The notes beneath the pieces are model-generated. The model was not told where the DNA came from and did no database searches. It was given only the letters and a program-made list of their open reading frames with translations. From Bacillota bacterium (GTDB lineage: Bacteria > Bacillota > DTU025): 64,000 nucleotides of DNA. Both the position numbers and the translations under genes were made by a program. Location of the stretch: NCBI GenBank assembly GCA_050951805.1, contig JBMNJT010000002.1:1056001-1120000 (forward strand), written 5' to 3'. This document shows positions 3,387-47,344 of this stretch, in pieces (the first letter of the stretch is position 1; each line of letters begins with the position of its first letter).

Positions 3387-4781
3387 ATGCAGGACCTAAC
3401 TCCTCGCGCGATCGTGCGCGAACTCGACAAATACATAGTAGGGCAGGCCTCCGCTAAGAAGGCCGTGGCCATTGCGCTGCGAAACCGGCAACGCAGGCTG
3501 GCGTTGGCTCCGGAAATGCAGGACGACATAATACCCAAGAATATACTGATGATCGGCCCCACTGGAGTAGGGAAAACCGAAATAGCCAGACGCTTGGCTC
3601 GGCTCGTCAACGCTCCTTTCGTGAAGGTGGAGGCGACGAAGTTTACTGAAGTCGGATATGTTGGACGCGATGTCGACAGCATTGTGCGGGAGCTCGTAGA
3701 GACTTCAGTGAGGATGGTAAAAGCAGATAAGATGTCGGGCGTGCAGGAGCAAGCGAAAATACTGGGCGAGGAGCGTCTGCTGGATGCCTTAGCGCCGTTG
3801 CCGACTCGCGATCGTTCTCAGGCCAACCCGTTTGCCGCCCTCTGGGGCATGCCTGTCGGGCAGCCGCAGGATGACCGGATGTTTGAGTCGAAACTGGCCA
3901 GCGCACGGGCGCGCAGGGAAGAGACGAGGGAACGCCTGAGAAGGGGCGAACTGGAAGATGTGATCATTGAGATCGAGATCGATGACGTACAGGGCGGGAT
4001 GATAGAGATCTTTTCCGGGGCCGGAGTGGAAGAGATGGGGATAAACCTTCAGGACCTCATGGGCGAGATGTTGCCTCCGCGCCGCCGCCGCAGAAAATTG
4101 CCTGTTTGTGAAGCTCGAAAAATCCTCATTACCGAGGAGGCCGCGAAGCTCATTGACATGGATGAGGTTGCTGAAGAGGCTATCGCCCGTGCGGAACAGA
4201 GCGGCATAGTATTCATCGACGAGATCGATAAGATCGCCGTCAAAGGGCAGGGCGCAGGGCCCGATGTGTCCCGTGAAGGCGTTCAGAGAGATATCCTGCC
4301 TATAGTGGAGGGGTCGACTGTCCAGACGAAATACGGGCCTGTAAAGACAGGGCACATGTTGTTTATTGCGGCTGGCGCTTTTCACATGTCGAAACCTTCT
4401 GATCTCATTCCGGAGCTGCAAGGGAGATTTCCAATAAGGGTGGAGCTTTCAAGCCTCACCAAAGATGATTTTGTGAGAATACTGACTGAGCCGAAGAACG
4501 CTCTGACCAAGCAATACATGGCTCTTCTTGCTACTGACGGGGTCGATTTGGTGTTTACGGATGATGGGGTTGAAGAGATAGCTAGAATTGCCGACGAGGT
4601 CAATTCCAGCAGTGAGAATATAGGCGCCCGAAGGCTCCATACGATTCTCGAAAAAGTGCTGGAGGAGGTATCTTTCAACGCGCCGGAGCATTCAGAGAGG
4701 GTTGTGGTAGATGCCGACTATGTGCGGTCCAGGCTGGAGCAGTTGGTTACTGAGAGCGATCTTTCGGACTACATTCTGTAG
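3387..4781 (+). CDS. hslU: ATP-dependent protease ATPase subunit HslU (ClpY)
   Basis: [45 protein letters not shown]. Confidence 0.97.
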
Positions 4782-43023: not shown

Positions 43024-44117
43024 GCGTGGAGAGTAAACGGAAGGCGTGGTGGCGTCAGCTGATTGTCCCCATTATTGCGGTGGTCTTGGGACTCCTAATT
43101 GGGGCGATTTTCATGTTATTCACTGGCGCGAAGCCCCTCGATGCGTATGGCGCACTGCTCAGCGGATGTTTCGGATCGGCAGTGAACATTTCGGAGACGG
43201 TTGTATATATTACGCCTCTCATATGCACTGGCCTGTCCATTGCAGTCGCATTTCGTGCTGGATTGTTTAACATCGGCGCAGAAGGCCAGATGATCGTGGG
43301 AATGTTGGCCTCGGCAATCATCGGCTACAAGCTGGCTGGTTTGCCCCGGATAATCCATCTTCCACTCACGATCTTTTTTGGAATGCTGGCGGGAGCGCTC
43401 TGGGCTGCAGTTCCAGGTTATCTCAAGGCTAAGTTCGGTGTACACGAGGTAGTGAACAGCATTATGATGAACTACATCGCGCTGTACCTATCCCACTACT
43501 TGGTAAATGGTCCGATAAAGGATCCGAATTTCGCGTCGCCGTATAGCCCTGAAATTGCGGACTCGGCTAAGCTGTGGAGATTCGTTGGCGGACATGGATC
43601 GGAATTCAGGGTCAACTCCGGTATTCTCATTGCGATCGCTGCAGCCATTCTCATATATCGTCTGCTTTACAAGACGACGCGGGGGTATGAGATAAGGGCA
43701 GTGGGTCTCAATGCTGAAGCGGCGCGATATGCAGGCATTGACGTCCCTTCTGCTATGGCAAGGTCTATGCTGATTGCAGGTTCCATGGCCGGGCTGGCAG
43801 GTGCTATACAAGTGTGCGGAATTCAGTACAAGTTTCTTGACCTTTTTGCGTTTGAGGGCTTTGGATTTGATGGAATAGCTGTGGCATTGCTTGCGCAGGG
43901 CAATCCCTACGGCATTTTGGCGGCGGCTTCGCTCTTTGGCGTGCTCAACAGAGGCTCACAGATGATGCAACTGTTGGCCAGGGTTCCAAAGGAGACTGCA
44001 GGCATCATCCAGGCTTCAGTAGTTTTCCTGGTGGCCGCTGAAGGAATTGTCGAAGGTTGGCTCCCGGTTCGTCGGACGGCCGGCCTTGAGGCTGCCGGGA
44101 AGGAGGAGACGCAATAA
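43020..44117 (+). CDS. Nucleoside ABC transporter permease
   Basis: [18 protein letters not shown]; multi-TM. Confidence 0.9.
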
Positions 44118-44118
44118 T

Positions 44119-45060
44119 ATGGAATTCCTATATTTCGTGGCTGACGCGTTAGCTACTACGGTGTCCCTCGCGGCACCTCTGATACTCACGGCCATTGGTG
44201 GTGTGTTTTCAGAGAGGTCGGGTGTGGTCAACATAGGGCTGGAAGGCATGATGCTGATCGGTTCTTTCATGGGCGTTCTCTTCTCCCATCTTACCGGCAA
44301 TGCCTGGATAGGGTTTTGGATGGGCGCTTTGTCTGGAGCCGCGGTGGCTGCTTTGCATGCATGGGTATGCATAAAGCACGGCGCAAACCAGACAGTATCG
44401 GGCGTGGCGATCAACATACTAGGGGCAGCTCTAACAGGCTACCTGTTGAGGGCCATATTCAACAGAGCAGGGCAGACTGAACCTGTTCCGGGCCTTGCGG
44501 CATGGACCATTCCCTTCTTGAAAGATGTTCCGATTCTCGGAGATATCTTCTACAGGAATATGCCTCCTGTATATATCGCCTTCATTGTCGTCATAGTCGC
44601 TCAGATAGTGCTTTTCAAAACTCCGCTGGGGCTCAGGATAAGGGCTTGCGGCGAACACCCGGAGGCCTCGGACACAGTAGGCGTGAACGTCGCTGGTATC
44701 AGATACTTGTGCGTGATACTCAGTGGATTCCTTGCAGGCATGGGAGGCGTCACGTTATCCCTTGGCCAACTCTCCCTCTTCAGGGAGGGAATGAGCGCGG
44801 GCAAGGGGTTCATAGCTTTGGCGGCGGTCATATTCGGCAGATGGACTCCTGTGGGAGCCATGTGGGCTTCGCTCCTGTTTGGTCTGGCAGACGGATTGCA
44901 GCTGACAGCACAGAACTGGGGATTTACTGCAATTCCGAGGGAGTTCTTGATCATGACGCCGTACATCGTTACTATGGCGGCATTGGCGGGCATCATCGGG
45001 CGGTCGGTTCCGCCGGCTGCAAGCGGGAAACCCTATGTCAGGCGTGGCGGGGGCGCTTGA
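44119..45060 (+). CDS. Nucleoside ABC transporter permease
   Basis: [24 protein letters not shown]. Confidence 0.9.
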
Positions 45061-45186
45061 TTACTTTGCTAGGCGGTGGAGCGGGACACGGCTTGGACGC
45101 ATCTTGAATGACAGGTGCCCAATACAGTACTGCTGTGGACATGTCGACGCCATTTACATGAGGCTGAGATGGCGCAGATGGTATTG

Positions 45187-45219
45187 AGAGGCGACCCCTC
45201 CCGTGACAGGGTCGCCTTT
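45187..45219 (+). terminator. Terminator-like hairpin ending the ABC operon; lies directly before the intron
   Basis: AGGCGACCC/GGGTCGCCT + TT. Confidence 0.7.
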
Positions 45220-45224
45220 GTGTC

Positions 45225-46089
45225 GTTCGCCCGGCATGTTTGTTGAGCCGATGGACTGAAAGAAGTCCTGTCACCTAACCAGCGGGAAGACAACCCCAAG
45301 GCAAGGGCGTCGCTGGTAACGGCGGGGTCTGAAGGAAGCTTTAAGGGGGAACACGGAACGTAGCGAAAGCGAACCGAAGTTGGCCTGTCAGGTGGGTAAC
45401 CTTGCGAAGTATGGGAAAGCCCGAAAGCTGGATAACCTGGGGGGTTTTGACGGACGGGTTCGTGTTCAGGCAGACAAACTTAACCGGGGAAGCCCTGCAT
45501 CATCCAGATAGCTGGTAAGCCCAAACAAGCGGAGACGCAAGGATGGGAATATGTGGTGTGGGGTGGCAGATGAGTCCGTAGTAGTTATGAACCCTCAGCC
45601 CATGAAAGCTGGCAACAGACCGGAGGATAAAACTGAGGGGACAGTGGCCAGGAGTCGCTGGGCTGCATAGGCCAAAAGCCTATGCAGTTGCGAAGGGACG
45701 AAGGCAAACCAAAGCGTGCAACCTAGTTACAGGCAAGCATGGGAGAGAGATAACAGAGGCTGAAATGCCGATGGGAACGGGGGAGCCGGGGGCGACGAGT
45801 CTGCTGGTCCCTGCGCCCGCTCAGCAGAGTATCAAAGTTTCGCGGGGTAGATTGCCTTAGAGCTAGAGACGCCTCGCAGGCCTTGGGAAGAAACTGCAAC
45901 CATGCAAGCTTGATGGCCAAGGAAGCACGGCGAGATGAATTGACCTCACGAAGTATGAGGTCGGCGTCTTGCATCTCTTCTATGAAGCGAAGTGACTAAG
46001 GTTTGCCAGGAGCCGTGTACGGGGCCCGTACGCACGGTTCTGTGAGAGGGATGACGCCAGGCCGATTACCTGGCGCCACCCTACTCGAT
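45225..46089 (+). mobile_element. ORF-less group II intron (IIC-like compact domain I, short domain V with AGC triad)
   Basis: 5' GTTCGCCCGGCATG; D1 motif GCAAGGG..GGTAAC..TCTGAAGGAAGC; D1 closes at TTAACCGGG; D5 GAGCCGTG-TACGG-GGC-CCGTA-CG-CACGGTTC; D6 GAGAGGG..CCCT(A)CTC with bulged A 46083; 3' end CTCGAT; no RT ORF. Confidence 0.9.
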
Positions 46090-46246
46090 GTTGAAATGGC
46101 ATTGAAAATGGGCAAGCTTTCATTGGGAGTGGATCAGTGTCGTGATGCGATGGAACCTGCGCTTCGGTTCGCAACATAGGTTGCCACATAGGTAGCTTAC
46201 GGAGGGCGGGAGCGCGCCGACGGAGGATTTCTTGTGATTTGGTGGA

Positions 46247-47344
46247 ATGATTAAGACTGTGGATATAAAGAACATGTCATTTGAGGAATGCAGAGGGTTT
46301 TTCGCGTCGCTCGGGGAGCCGGCCTACAGGGCGGACCAGGTTTTCGAGTGGCTTCATGGCAAGCGGACGGCGGCATACGATGAAATGACAAATCTCCCTG
46401 TCTCGCTCCGCAGAACGCTTGCGGAGGTCGCTCCCTTGCGTCCTCCAGAGGTCCTCGCCGTGCACTCCTCGCCCGGAGGTGCCACGAAATACCTGATAGG
46501 CCTGGCAGATGGCAATGCTGTTGAGACGGTCTTGATGGAGCATGACTACGGATTGAGCTTGTGCGTTTCGTCTCAGGTAGGCTGCGGTATGGGGTGTGCT
46601 TTTTGTGCTTCAGGCCTTGAGGGCCTCGTGAGGAACCTGACATGCGGCGAAATGATAGACCAGATATTGGCCGTGAGCAATGGCATCGCCAACGAAAGTC
46701 CCAACAGGCGCGTCAGTTCGGTCGTTATGATGGGAAGCGGAGAGCCCTTGGCCAATTACGATAACGTTCTCAAGTTTGTGCGACTTATCAACTGGAAGAG
46801 AGGCTACGGGATAGGCTACAGGCACATAACCATCTCGACATGCGGAATCGTGCCTGGCATACGCAGGCTTGCTCAAGAAGGGCTGCCTGTGACGCTTTCC
46901 GTATCACTCCATGCGCCGGATGATCACACACGGTCTGCATTGATGAAGATAAACCAGGTCTATCCAGTGGGGCAGCTGATCGAGGCATGTATTGATTATG
47001 CGAATTCCACGGGAAGACGCGTGACGTACGAGTATTCTCTGATAGGCGGTGTTAATGATTCGAGGGACCATGCCCTGCGGCTGGCGCGCCTCTTGGGGGG
47101 CACTTTGTGCCATGTCAACCTCATACCACTCAATCCCGTGCCGGAGACGGGGTTCGCTCGTCCCTCTCAGGAGGCAGTCAATGTGTTCGCTTGCACACTT
47201 CGTTCCGCTGGGATCGAAACCACTATCAGGCGTGAGATGGGCGGCGATATAGACGCAGCCTGTGGCCAGCTGAGGCGGAGGTGGGCAGGGCGTCCAGGGG
47301 CGTCTGATCCGAGCAAAAGGCGAGATGAGGGGGGTAGAGATTGA
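46247..47344 (+). CDS. rlmN: Dual-specificity 23S rRNA/tRNA m2A methyltransferase RlmN
   Basis: CVSSQVGCGMGCAFC radical SAM motif, MGSGEP, DIDAACGQL. Confidence 0.96.
   Translation: MIKTVDIKNMSFEECRGFFASLGEPAYRADQVFEWLHGKRTAAYDEMTNLPVSLRRTLAEVAPLRPPEVLAVHSSPGGATKYLIGLADGNAVETVLMEHDYGLSLCVSSQVGCGMGCAFCASGLEGLVRNLTCGEMIDQILAVSNGIANESPNRRVSSVVMMGSGEPLANYDNVLKFVRLINWKRGYGIGYRHITISTCGIVPGIRRLAQEGLPVTLSVSLHAPDDHTRSALMKINQVYPVGQLIEACIDYANSTGRRVTYEYSLIGGVNDSRDHALRLARLLGGTLCHVNLIPLNPVPETGFARPSQEAVNVFACTLRSAGIETTIRREMGGDIDAACGQLRRRWAGRPGASDPSKRRDEGGRD

Follow-up and report, generated by a model that had tools for sequence, protein, structure and literature searches.

Positions 45225-46089 of the window, our term for the entire 64,000-nucleotide stretch of DNA analysed here, raise the question of how a group II intron that carries no reverse transcriptase (RT) gene came to lie behind an ABC-transporter operon, and of which class it belongs to. 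The initial annotation read this segment as an apparently intact, ORF-less intron of hybrid architecture that fitted class IIC poorly. It offered an IIE-like lineage as an alternative, and took the element to be either a non-autonomous retroelement mobilised in trans or a domesticated structured RNA.

Intron identity, ends and fold

A covariance-model search, the check proposed with that annotation, placed both a D1-D4 and a D5/D6 match above the Rfam gathering cut-offs. These are the only two matches at gathering thresholds in the whole 64-kb window, and both fall within 45225-46089: RF02001 (group-II-D1D4-3) at 45310-45479 with 61.7 bits (cut-off 32), and RF00029 (Intron_gpII, D5/D6) at 46008-46089 with 48.5 bits (cut-off 40). 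The intron is complete, spans 865 nt, begins with GUUCG and ends in ...CUACUCGAU. Both ends are independently fixed, because a BLAST search of the host genome with the 865-nt sequence finds five copies that match over the whole length, bases 1 to 865, and diverge beyond, and because an empty-site contig joins 45224 to 46090. The intron and its domains are:

45225-46089, plus strand: complete ORF-less group II intron (Rfam, BLAST copies, MFE fold, empty-site contig)
45230-45488, plus strand: domain 1, which holds the RF02001 match (MFE fold, Rfam, covariation)
45489-45567, plus strand: domain 2, enlarged, 79 nt (MFE fold, covariation)
45574-45699, plus strand: domain 3, enlarged, 126 nt, with three hairpins (MFE fold, covariation of helices 16-19)
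45703-46007, plus strand: domain 4, comprising a 237-nt conserved leader, a deletion junction and an ORF remnant (copy alignment, relatives, MFE fold)
46010-46040, plus strand: domain 5, 31 nt, with the AGC triad at 46011-46013 and a two-base CG bulge (Rfam, MFE fold)
46044-46086, plus strand: domain 6; its branch point is the bulged A at 46083, the seventh base counting back from the 3' end (Rfam, MFE fold)

The unconstrained MFE fold of 45225-46089 has an energy of -348.7 kcal/mol (z = -4.19; none of 20 shuffles equalled it) and resolves into six top-level helices (45230-45488, 45489-45567, 45574-45699, 45703-46007, 46009-46041 and 46044-46086), to within 3 nt of which the domains had already been paired by eye. 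The positions first given for the bulged A, the AGC triad and the CG bulge likewise agree with fold and sequence. The A sits above a 3-bp basal helix of D6, and three apical positions are missing from the Rfam alignment of D5. The ribozyme measures ~560 nt minus D4, and 865 nt counting the D4 that it retains.

Covariation supports the D1-D4 helices. In an alignment of 25 related sequences, pairing holds in 92.9% of cells, compared with 72.3% in shuffles, and both sides have changed in 80 of 106 pairs, a count that averages 55.9 +/- 2.8 in shuffles and is reached by none of 500; slid controls give 35-46 such pairs. In the same 25 sequences, compensatory changes occur at four of the five pairs of the D1 closing helix, and both-side changes at 10 of the 11 pairs of D2 helices 14-15. 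The window copy carries four private substitutions in D3 (45645, 45650, 45655 and 45656), three of which preserve all seven stem pairs while the fourth lies in a loop, so that no base pair is lost. Together, the Rfam matches, the six-domain fold and the covariation among 25 relatives bear out the reading of 45225-46089 as an intact ORF-less group II intron. No ORF within the intron matches Pfam, and the sole coding trace is a 17-codon RT remnant; we set aside an 83-codon minus-strand ORF (45723-45974) and a 58-codon plus-strand ORF (46003-46179), both without a Pfam match, as chance frames.

Full-length parents and the deletion in domain 4

The statement that no RT lies inside or near the intron holds for the window, since none of the eight RT matches in the genome falls within C2:1056001-1120000, and fails for the genome as a whole. 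Three 2092-nt copies elsewhere in the host genome each contain a 424-codon open frame that encodes an intact 423-aa RT/maturase (P0001), the nearest of these RT-bearing parents being on the window's own contig, ~268 kb upstream. The BLAST search suggested at the outset, for extra copies, RT-bearing relatives and an empty site, thus yielded all three: the 865-nt query has 33 matches in the host genome, which include the five ORF-less and the three 2092-nt copies, and run X2 supplied the empty site.

The deletion was mapped on an alignment of the five ORF-less copies with three full-length and two variant copies. The 865-nt form equals the 2092-nt element minus a single 1227-nt block in D4, with the six ribozyme domains otherwise unchanged, and differs from the full-length copies at 0-18 of ~865 shared positions. 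With the block went the ribosome-binding site and, apart from its last 17 codons, the whole RT gene, start codon included. Two features mark the event:

45939-45940, plus strand: deletion junction, identical in all five ORF-less copies (copy alignment)
45940-45995, plus strand: RT/maturase ORF remnant, the last 17 codons plus stop, matching the C-terminus of the 423-aa P0001

Microhomology at the junction amounts to one base only, and nothing in the sequence there suggested a mechanism that would direct the deletion to recur. ORF-less and full-length copies nevertheless have polymorphisms in common, at intron positions 223/224, 445, 458 and 655. These shared polymorphisms are at odds with a simple tree of one deletion followed by clonal spread: either copies have exchanged sequence through recombination or gene conversion, or the deletion has recurred.

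Across the genome, 10 of 11 RF00029 matches score above the cut-off, all five ORF-less copies included. Four solitary 3'-end fragments of the intron are consistent with incomplete reverse transcription. Decayed relatives lie at C8:451131-451759 and C2:1021855-1022286 and, as a ~230-nt mini form, at C2:704430-704660, with D5/D6 matches that are absent or below threshold.

Insertion sites

The window intron lies downstream of an ABC-permease gene, on the same strand, and upstream of rlmN, and interrupts no coding sequence:

44047-45060, plus strand: second of two ABC-transporter permease genes (BPD_transp_2; ORF list; Pfam PF02653, E 9.9e-40)
45190-45216, plus strand: terminator-like 5' exon hairpin with an 8-bp G+C-rich stem, 45190-45197 / 45209-45216 (sequence; upstream fold -19.6 kcal/mol)
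45217-45224, plus strand: U-rich tail of the hairpin, its last three bases (45222-45224) being the presumed short IBS1 (conservation over 12 copies)
46247-47344, plus strand: rlmN-type radical SAM rRNA methyltransferase gene (Pfam RlmN_N + Radical_SAM)

A simple terminator scan recovered only a partial version of the 45190-45216 hairpin, whose loop exceeds the limit of the tool. The five ORF-less copies occupy five places with five different flanks, and no larger segmental duplication was seen around them, the flanks differing at all five sites. A hairpin precedes every one of the 12 related copies in the genome. The 45-nt segments upstream of 11 of these 12 fall below the 5th percentile of 2000 random genomic segments, with a mean fold of -21.5 kcal/mol versus -8.8 for the random set, and exon conservation over the 12 copies is confined to positions -3 to -1 (G/T, T, C/T). 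IIC introns insert shortly downstream of hairpins that resemble intrinsic terminators or attC sites (PMC4424553). Judged by these flanks, the target type of this intron family in the genome is that of IIC, and not the EBS1+EBS2 type of IIE and IIF.

Class assignment

The solved proteins closest to P0001 are all from IIC introns: the GsI-IIC RT (8.4e-103), the E. rectale IIC maturase 7uim (3.9e-87) and 5hhj/5hhl; LtrA scores 1.1e-46 and TeI4h 1.8e-44. Its 423 aa contain two Pfam domains, RVT_1 and GIIM, and no En domain, and TIGR04416 matches at 428 bits (cut-off 300). Taking the few solved RTs together with the target type and the RNA features, the parent intron would be assigned to class C / IIC.

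IIC introns have a shortened D5, of about 32 nt rather than 34. We compared the element with the RT-bearing IIC introns GsI-IIC of Geobacillus stearothermophilus, those of E. rectale/R. intestinalis, B.h.I1 and O.i.I1. It resembles them in the RT of its sister copies, which is closest to solved IIC RTs and has no En domain, in its insertion behind terminator-like hairpins with ~3 conserved exon bases, and in its short D5; as in most IIC introns, the bulged A of D6 stands above a 3-bp basal helix (PMC4748821). Unlike them, the window copy has no ORF, and its 5' end is GUUCG. Its triad is AGC, whereas CGC is implied by the triplex listing for O. iheyensis (PMC7583470).

These departures, with a D2 of 79 nt and a D3 of 126 nt, are what speaks for a new or hybrid structural class in which an IIC-like D1 and D5 are joined to IIB- or IIE-like features. 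Size points the same way: the small ribozyme of ~400-490 nt without ORF that excerpted descriptions give as typical of IIC, with O. iheyensis constructs of 412-486 nt (O.i.I1), is not found here, where D2, D3 and the 237-nt conserved D4 leader enlarge the RNA and ~560 nt remain without D4. Ribozyme size, however, is a typical trait and no class criterion in the papers cited. In the excerpted text of PMC3753933, the IIC criterion is a short IBS1 with no EBS2/IBS2, while IIE and IIF have a IIB-like RNA whose EBS1 and EBS2 each pair over >=5 bp with the 5' exon. We rejected IIE/IIF for this intron: no bases beyond three are conserved upstream of the 12 copies, and the target is a hairpin, so that the IIE-like alternative, which calls for an EBS1+EBS2-type target, falls away. 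The similarity of the RT, its lack of an En domain, a hairpin target for 12 of 12 copies, the three conserved exon bases with no conserved IBS2, and the 31-nt D5 all lead to IIC, against the hybrid architecture first proposed.

The unusual traits are, moreover, uniform in the lineage. The 5' GUUCG, the AGC triad, a 31-nt D5, large D2 and D3, and ~720 nt ahead of the ORF recur among relatives, whose records come from Bacillota, Bacteroidota, Desulfobacterota and Planctomycetota. D5 could be delimited by fold in 43 of 47 loci (missed in L040, L042, L046 and L057) and is 30-31 nt long with an AGC triad in all 43; AGC is also present in the sequences of the four missed loci. The 5' end is GUUYG in 20 of the 22 sequences listed. 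Even L079, the most distant Bacillaceae match (RT 44% identical), has AGC, with a D5 of 34 nt. No CGC-type IIC comparator was obtained among the relative loci fetched. The 5' exons of the 21 relatives listed end mostly in T-rich runs, and a search for EBS1/IBS1 covariation across relatives did not locate EBS1, nearly all 5' exon tails being U-rich and offering too little variation. The AGC triad, the GUUYG end, the larger D2 and D3 and the long leader in D4 are traits of a lineage and not signs of a chimera.

This lineage has probably been catalogued already. The relatives of P0001 include proteins from Pelotomaculum (76% identity), Alkaliphilus (58%) and Desulfobulbaceae-type records (51-54%), and excerpts of Toro and Martinez-Abarca (2013; PMC3552965) list D.p.I1, Al.or.I2 and Pe.th.I1 as divergent class C ORFs; their genera or families match those of the P0001 relatives, an identification drawn from taxon names. 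We give a new or hybrid class almost no credence. The claim of novelty was to fall if close homologs all carried an RT and belonged to a described class, and this is essentially what we found; the window intron reveals no new class or mechanism.

Polymorphism and RNA-library contigs

In run X2, which belongs to another study, one DNA contig of 6290 nt passes directly from 45224 to 46090 and skips exactly 865 nt, with 0 mismatches on either flank; in run X3 the intron is present at the window site. We read the window insertion as recent and mobile, its site being empty in a near-identical strain, and the absence of the insertion from that strain contradicts a domesticated structured RNA.

RNA-library contigs of two studies span the ORF-less junction (X15 record 3 and X16 record 14). 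The ligated-exon joint 45224|46090 does not occur in the assembled RNA-library contigs of X15 and X16, although such contigs cannot show absence. The intergenic flanks at 45053-45205 and 46124-46225 are uncovered in these contigs, and the window copy may be poorly transcribed. Word depth over the intron is 112 and 22 in the RNA contigs versus 5.5-7 in neighbouring genes, but is confounded by the >=10 (at least ten) intron copies per genome and was dropped as a measure of expression.

Probable mobilisation in trans and its alternatives

We conclude with considerable confidence that the window element derives from a class C / IIC intron retroelement, as a non-autonomous copy that lost its ORF by deletion and has spread with full-length helpers. 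Mobilisation in trans, already among the proposals of the initial annotation, is most likely and remains the best reading given five copies with one junction and intact RT sisters. We envisage that a single deletion event gave rise to the ORF-less form, that the shortened RNA would be transcribed through read-through from upstream genes, and that maturase from the full-length copies would aid its folding and splicing. The RNP would then reverse-splice into single-stranded DNA directly 3' of terminator-like hairpins; there the hairpin would take the place of the EBS2/IBS2 pairing that is lacking, together with a short IBS1/EBS1 and an IBS3/EBS3 contact. The same protein would copy the inserted RNA to DNA, presumably from a replication-fork primer because it has no endonuclease. 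By this route the window copy would have landed behind the terminator of the ABC-permease operon.

Loss of the RT gene with copying aided by full-length sisters is a known, if uncommon, lifestyle among bacterial introns. In Thermosynechococcus elongatus, 17 ORF-less TeI3 introns with one breakpoint have been mobilised experimentally by IEPs in trans, according to the excerpted account of Mohr, Ghanem and Lambowitz (2010; PMC2882425). As described there, they resemble the present copies in their identical breakpoints, ORF remnants, ORF-bearing sisters in the same genome and many sites. TeI3, however, is a CL/IIB1 intron with an En-containing IEP, long EBS/IBS homing sites and 17 ORF-less versus 8 ORF-bearing copies in that account, whereas ours is a IIC intron with hairpin targeting, five ORF-less versus three intact ORF-bearing copies, and is known from sequence alone. 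One consideration weighs against helper-dependent spread: in IIA introns the start-codon region forms part of DIVa, the high-affinity maturase-binding site (excerpts of PMC2882425), and the deletion removes the ribosome-binding site and start-codon region that, by analogy, would be its counterpart. Within the retained D4, conserved blocks near 45849-45875 are candidates for a maturase-binding element that outlasts the deletion.

The same loss, of a region that is part of the maturase-binding site in other classes according to those excerpts, would suit a window copy, or a whole set of ORF-less copies, that is dead and sits harmlessly behind terminators without splicing or moving. Decayed relatives clearly exist in the genome, and the 5' exon-intron boundary of the locus is uncovered in RNA contigs, with no spliced junction seen there. 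Such an inert state nonetheless seems improbable to us. Five copies that share one junction and are 97.7-100% identical to the window copy sit behind five unrelated hairpins, the window insertion is polymorphic between near-identical strains, every private change of the window copy keeps pairing, and all the ORF-less copies are among the RF00029 matches that pass the cut-off.

An ORF-less IIC intron might also act by itself. HYERs (Liu et al. 2024, Science, as relayed in PMC11754743 and PMC12990946) are natural group IIC introns without a protein-coding region, and the excerpted accounts describe efficient, hydrolytic cleavage of RNA and DNA guided by a recognition site of ~6 nt, as well as palindromic D3 pairing in dimers of HYER1/5. 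The window intron is likened to them by description, as a IIC intron without a protein-coding region, and at 865 nt is longer than HYER1 (637 nt in those accounts) owing to the long D4 that it retains. The X15 and X16 contigs that bridge the ORF-less junction would accord with a HYER-type, protein-independent hydrolytic endonuclease on DNA or RNA, or with another host use. We hold a role of this kind to be very improbable: nothing here tells it apart from simple parasitic spread, strains differ in whether they carry the insertion, and with three intact cognate RT copies a protein-free cycle is unneeded.

A related suggestion, which we rate as unlikely though worth stating, is that the 865-nt RNA is a natural HYER-like ribozyme of a divergent, enlarged IIC sub-lineage (AGC, expanded D2/D3, 237-nt D4 leader), whose extra structure would let it fold, cut or integrate largely or wholly unaided by protein, or make it a better binder of the maturase than its parent. 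Either property, if real, could explain why ORF-less copies outnumber intact ORF-bearing ones (5 versus 3), and under a HYER-like activity the recombinant shared polymorphisms could reflect repeated template switching in co-packaged reverse transcription.

Under the helper-dependent reading that we prefer, the locus offers a clean natural IIC case, with what would be one deletion event, five dispersed copies, helper copies in the genome and a documented empty site. It should lend itself to studying how a IIC maturase can recognise its RNA after the start-codon region is lost and whether compact ORF-less forms outspread their parents. It may also provide a new, larger scaffold for HYER-type ribozymes. 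For genome annotation, all five ORF-less copies would escape RT-based intron finders.

Anatomy of the ORF-less intron

The element at window positions 45225–46089 (+; 865 nt) was read in the initial annotation as an intact group II intron devoid of an open reading frame (ORF), a reading now supported by two Rfam matches above their cut-offs, a six-domain fold, and the absence of Pfam matches among ORFs within the intron. At curated thresholds the 64-kb window yields two Rfam matches in all, both inside the element: RF02001 (group-II-D1D4-3) at 45310–45479 (61.7 bits, cut-off 32) and RF00029 (group II D5/D6) at 46008–46089 (48.5 bits, cut-off 40), the latter being the covariance-model check proposed for D5/D6. 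A permissive rescan of 45100–46200 added nothing further of substance. The unconstrained fold of the element reaches −348.7 kcal/mol (z = −4.19; equaled by 0 of 20 shuffles), and its six top-level helices agree to within 3 bases with the domain coordinates initially assigned by eye:

45230–45488, D1
45489–45567, D2
45574–45699, D3
45703–46007, D4
46009–46041, D5 (31 nt at 46010–46040; AGC at 46011–46013; CG bulge)
46044–46086, D6 (bulged A at 46083, 7 bases from the intron end)

Five substitutions are private to this copy. Three lie in one D3 stem (C-G to U.G, G.U to G-C, and G-C to G.U), where all 7 pairs are kept; the others fall in the loop of the same D3 hairpin and in the D6 loop.

Derivation from full-length copies

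A BLAST search of the host assembly (8 contigs, 2.75 Mb) with the 865 nt returned 33 matches, among them both the extra copies and the reverse transcriptase (RT)-bearing relatives that the initial annotation had proposed to look for. Five copies align over bases 1–865 at 97.7–100% identity. Three full-length copies of 2,092 nt match bases 1–715 and 715–865 with 1,227 nt between, and carry a 424-codon open frame. Two variants share another deletion of about 242 nt, from intron position 640 into the 5′ end of the ORF, which removes part of D4 and the start of the ORF and leaves open frames of 408 (C3) and 404 (C4) codons without a normal start:

C2:1101225, ORF-less (the window copy)
C7:28591 (−), ORF-less
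C2:930928, ORF-less
C4:16381 (−), ORF-less
C2:464085, ORF-less
C7:21996–24087, full-length
C7:29456–31547 (−), full-length
C2:831218–833309, full-length
C3:143717–145566, variant, 1,850 nt
C4:101073–102895, variant, 1,823 nt

In an alignment of ten sequences the deletion junction, 45939|45940, is identical in all five ORF-less copies; what is lost comprises the ribosome-binding site and nearly the entire ORF from its start codon on, with only the final 17 codons remaining. ORF-less and full-length copies differ at 0–18 of about 865 shared positions, with one ORF-less/full-length pair showing no difference at all. By this sequence comparison, the 865-nt form is the full-length element minus one deleted block. 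Polymorphisms in the eight copies at intron positions 223/224, 445, 458, and 655 (window 45447/45448, 45669, 45682, and 45879) are each common to some ORF-less and some full-length copies. Because all four combinations of allele and deletion state occur, recombination or gene conversion, RT template switching, or recurrent deletion is needed. The variant form also appears in a contig of the RNA-library run X15 (45864 joined to 45978, with 1,086 letters between).

Class of the parent element and its relatives

The RT/maturase of the full-length copies (P0001, 423 aa) consists of RVT_1 and a group II maturase domain and no other, has a YADD motif, and scores 428 bits against the NCBIfam group II RT/maturase equivalog (cut-off 300). 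Its best four matches among solved structures are all IIC: GsI-IIC RT (8.4e-103), the Eubacterium rectale IIC maturase 7uim (3.9e-87), and 5hhj/5hhl (~1e-67), compared with 1.1e-46 for LtrA (IIA) and 1.8e-44 for TeI4h (IIB). Of the eight RT matches in the host genome, three are the intact copies, two are the N-truncated variants, and three are weak fragments; the 64-kb window contains none of them.

Scanning one genome per species with P0001 identified 58 related loci (RT identity 41–82%) in Bacillota (Pelotomaculum, Desulforamulus, Desulforadius, Thermotalea, Alkaliphilus, Acetobacterium), Bacteroidota (Phaeodactylibacter, Salegentibacter), Desulfobacterota, Planctomycetota, and others. With nhmmer, the window's D1 was found in 42 of these and D5–D6 in 47. 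Length is 2,084–2,136 nt in 28 of the 31 loci with both ends set by script, and the ORF starts about 720–780 nt from the intron 5′ end throughout. Among 22 sequences (the window copy and 21 relatives) the 5′ end is GUUUG in 16, GUUCG in 4, and GUGCG in 2. All 43 D5 sequences delimited by script contain AGC and measure 30–31 nt, and AGC is also present in the printed sequences of the other 4 of the 47 loci examined. Across a 25-sequence alignment of the 5′ part, conservation spans D1, D2, and D3 and reaches the D4 leader. In the RNAalifold structure of these sequences 92.9% of cells pair (72.3% in shuffles), and 80 of 106 pairs show both-sided changes, against 55.9 ± 2.8 in shuffles (0 of 500) and 35–46 for slid partners; the helices of the enlarged D2 and D3 rank among those with the best support.

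The initial annotation had proposed a hybrid architecture, with IIE-like lineages as an alternative to IIC. On the comparative sequence evidence the supposedly hybrid traits are lineage traits, and both parent RT and target type are IIC. The hosts of the relatives overlap those of divergent class C introns in a passage of PMC3552965; given this overlap of hosts, the lineage is probably already catalogued as divergent class C.

In the Pelotomaculum propionicicum locus (L039), positions 3856–3945 match RF02005, another D1–D4 family (60.8 bits; truncated where the locus ends). For the related intron the 3′ nhmmer match runs as far as 3821, and the RF02005 match starts close to the point where that intron is estimated to end, which suggests a second intron at this 3′ end or immediately beyond it.

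Target sites

A G+C-rich hairpin precedes all 12 copies or large fragments in the host. Folding of the upstream 45 nt averages −21.5 kcal/mol, versus −8.8 (sd 3.9) for 2,000 random genomic windows, and 11 of the 12 segments fall below the control's 5th percentile. Exon conservation across the 12 sites is limited to the last three bases (G/T, T, C/T). The window target follows the stop codon of an ABC-permease gene by about 130 nt and precedes rlmN by about 160 nt:

45190–45216, hairpin
45217–45224, tail

Across the window copy and its 21 listed relatives, most 5′ exons end in T-rich runs, and a hairpin precedes those printed with more upstream sequence. Hairpin-type targets are described as a hallmark of IIC/class C introns in passages of PMC4424553 and PMC12584367, and the host copies share this target type. 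IIE and IIF introns, by contrast, use EBS1 and EBS2 pairings of 5 bp or more in passages of PMC3753933, the opposite of the target type seen here.

Distribution and probable mobility

The five ORF-less copies share one junction and no common flank. Sequence of the 44900–46400 stretch turned up in 20 public runs spread over 17 studies, which places the organism and its intron family in metagenomes of anaerobic digesters, landfill, bioreactors, sediment, and sludge; six RNA-library runs contain 0.56–0.61 of its sampled words, about the intron's share (865/1501 bases). The proposed search for an empty site succeeded: in a 6,290-nt contig of the DNA run X2, from another study, 45224 is joined to 46090, skipping exactly 865 nt (GT..AT), with 0 mismatches over the 325 + 311 flanking bases compared. 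Contigs of run X3 bridge both intron–exon junctions at the window site, so the insertion is polymorphic among near-identical strains. Two same-genus genomes (G001, G002) have rlmN homologues at 76–77% identity, and no intron matches were reported on the contigs bearing them. In two studies, RNA-library contigs (X15 record 3; X16 record 14, 761 nt) extend across the deletion junction; these contigs contain no exon–exon joint and do not cover the locus's intergenic flanks.

Two ORF-less copies adjoin other introns:

C7:28591–31547 (−), full-length copy (31547–29456), then ORF-less copy (29455–28591), with 0 spacer bases (29455|29456)
C4:16381–17245 (−), ORF-less copy within an older, diverged intron, 4 bases in from that intron's 5′ end

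The C7 tandem reflects either two insertions at a single terminator site or a second insertion for which the first copy's D6 provided the hairpin. At C4, the TTC triplet comes from the opening bases of the old intron, and what remains of that intron's 5′ end continues after the 3′ end of the new copy.

Alongside the demonstrated anatomy, single-deletion derivation, helper copies, IIC-type sites, and polymorphism, a route of mobilization can be proposed by analogy with IIC introns and those of T. elongatus. The ORF-less intron would be transcribed by read-through, its RNA bound in trans by maturase from helper copies, and the RNA would reverse-splice downstream of hairpins into single-stranded DNA. 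The replication fork would supply the primer for reverse transcription, since the intron-encoded protein (IEP) lacks an endonuclease (excerpts of PMC4424553; PMC2882425). In kind, the nearest precedent comes from T. elongatus, whose 17 ORF-less introns share one common breakpoint and are mobilized by sister IEPs, according to portions of PMC2882425; by class, the nearest are HYERs, described in papers citing them as IIC introns that lack an ORF and have hydrolytic activity. Passages of PMC4424553 call ORF-less introns rare in bacteria and nearly always co-resident with related IEP-encoding introns. The window element fits that description exactly and is not a new architecture; its usefulness lies in offering a clean, natural IIC case for which an empty site exists, and in being a possible scaffold for ribozymes.

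Fragments and relics

The host also carries partial elements, the solitary ones spanning 34–78 nt:

C2:156194–156271, solitary 3′ end (D5/D6)
C2:1393240–1393273, solitary 3′ end (D5/D6)
C3:4485–4527, solitary 3′ end (D5/D6)
C8:222587–222629, solitary 5′ end (within the first ~44 intron bases)
C8:364995–365031, solitary 5′ end (within the first ~44 intron bases)
C2:704430–704660, ~230-nt relic behind a hairpin (intron 5′ end, D1 pieces, 36-nt linker, D5, D6-like stem)
C4:98677–99460, 784-nt copy without D5/D6, 93% identical to positions 1–785
C8:451131–451759, shorter, diverged ORF-less relative (72–83% identity) without intron positions ~439–617

The 3′-end fragments fit 5′-truncated insertions from incomplete reverse transcription, and the two 5′-end fragments, with similar downstream sequence, look like a duplicated relic. 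The C2 relic lacks D2–D4 and scores 33 bits with RF00029, below cut-off; its joint (45446 to 46010, 36 letters between) recurs in an X3 contig. The 784-nt copy lies 1.6 kb upstream of the C4:101073 variant, and the 1,612 nt after it hold only unannotated open frames of 100–165 codons. No D5/D6 match was found at C8:451131–451759 at E ≤ 0.001. This type probably represents an ORF-less lineage that is older and in decay, and the same architecture occurs in a same-genus genome (G002:C282:1–497).
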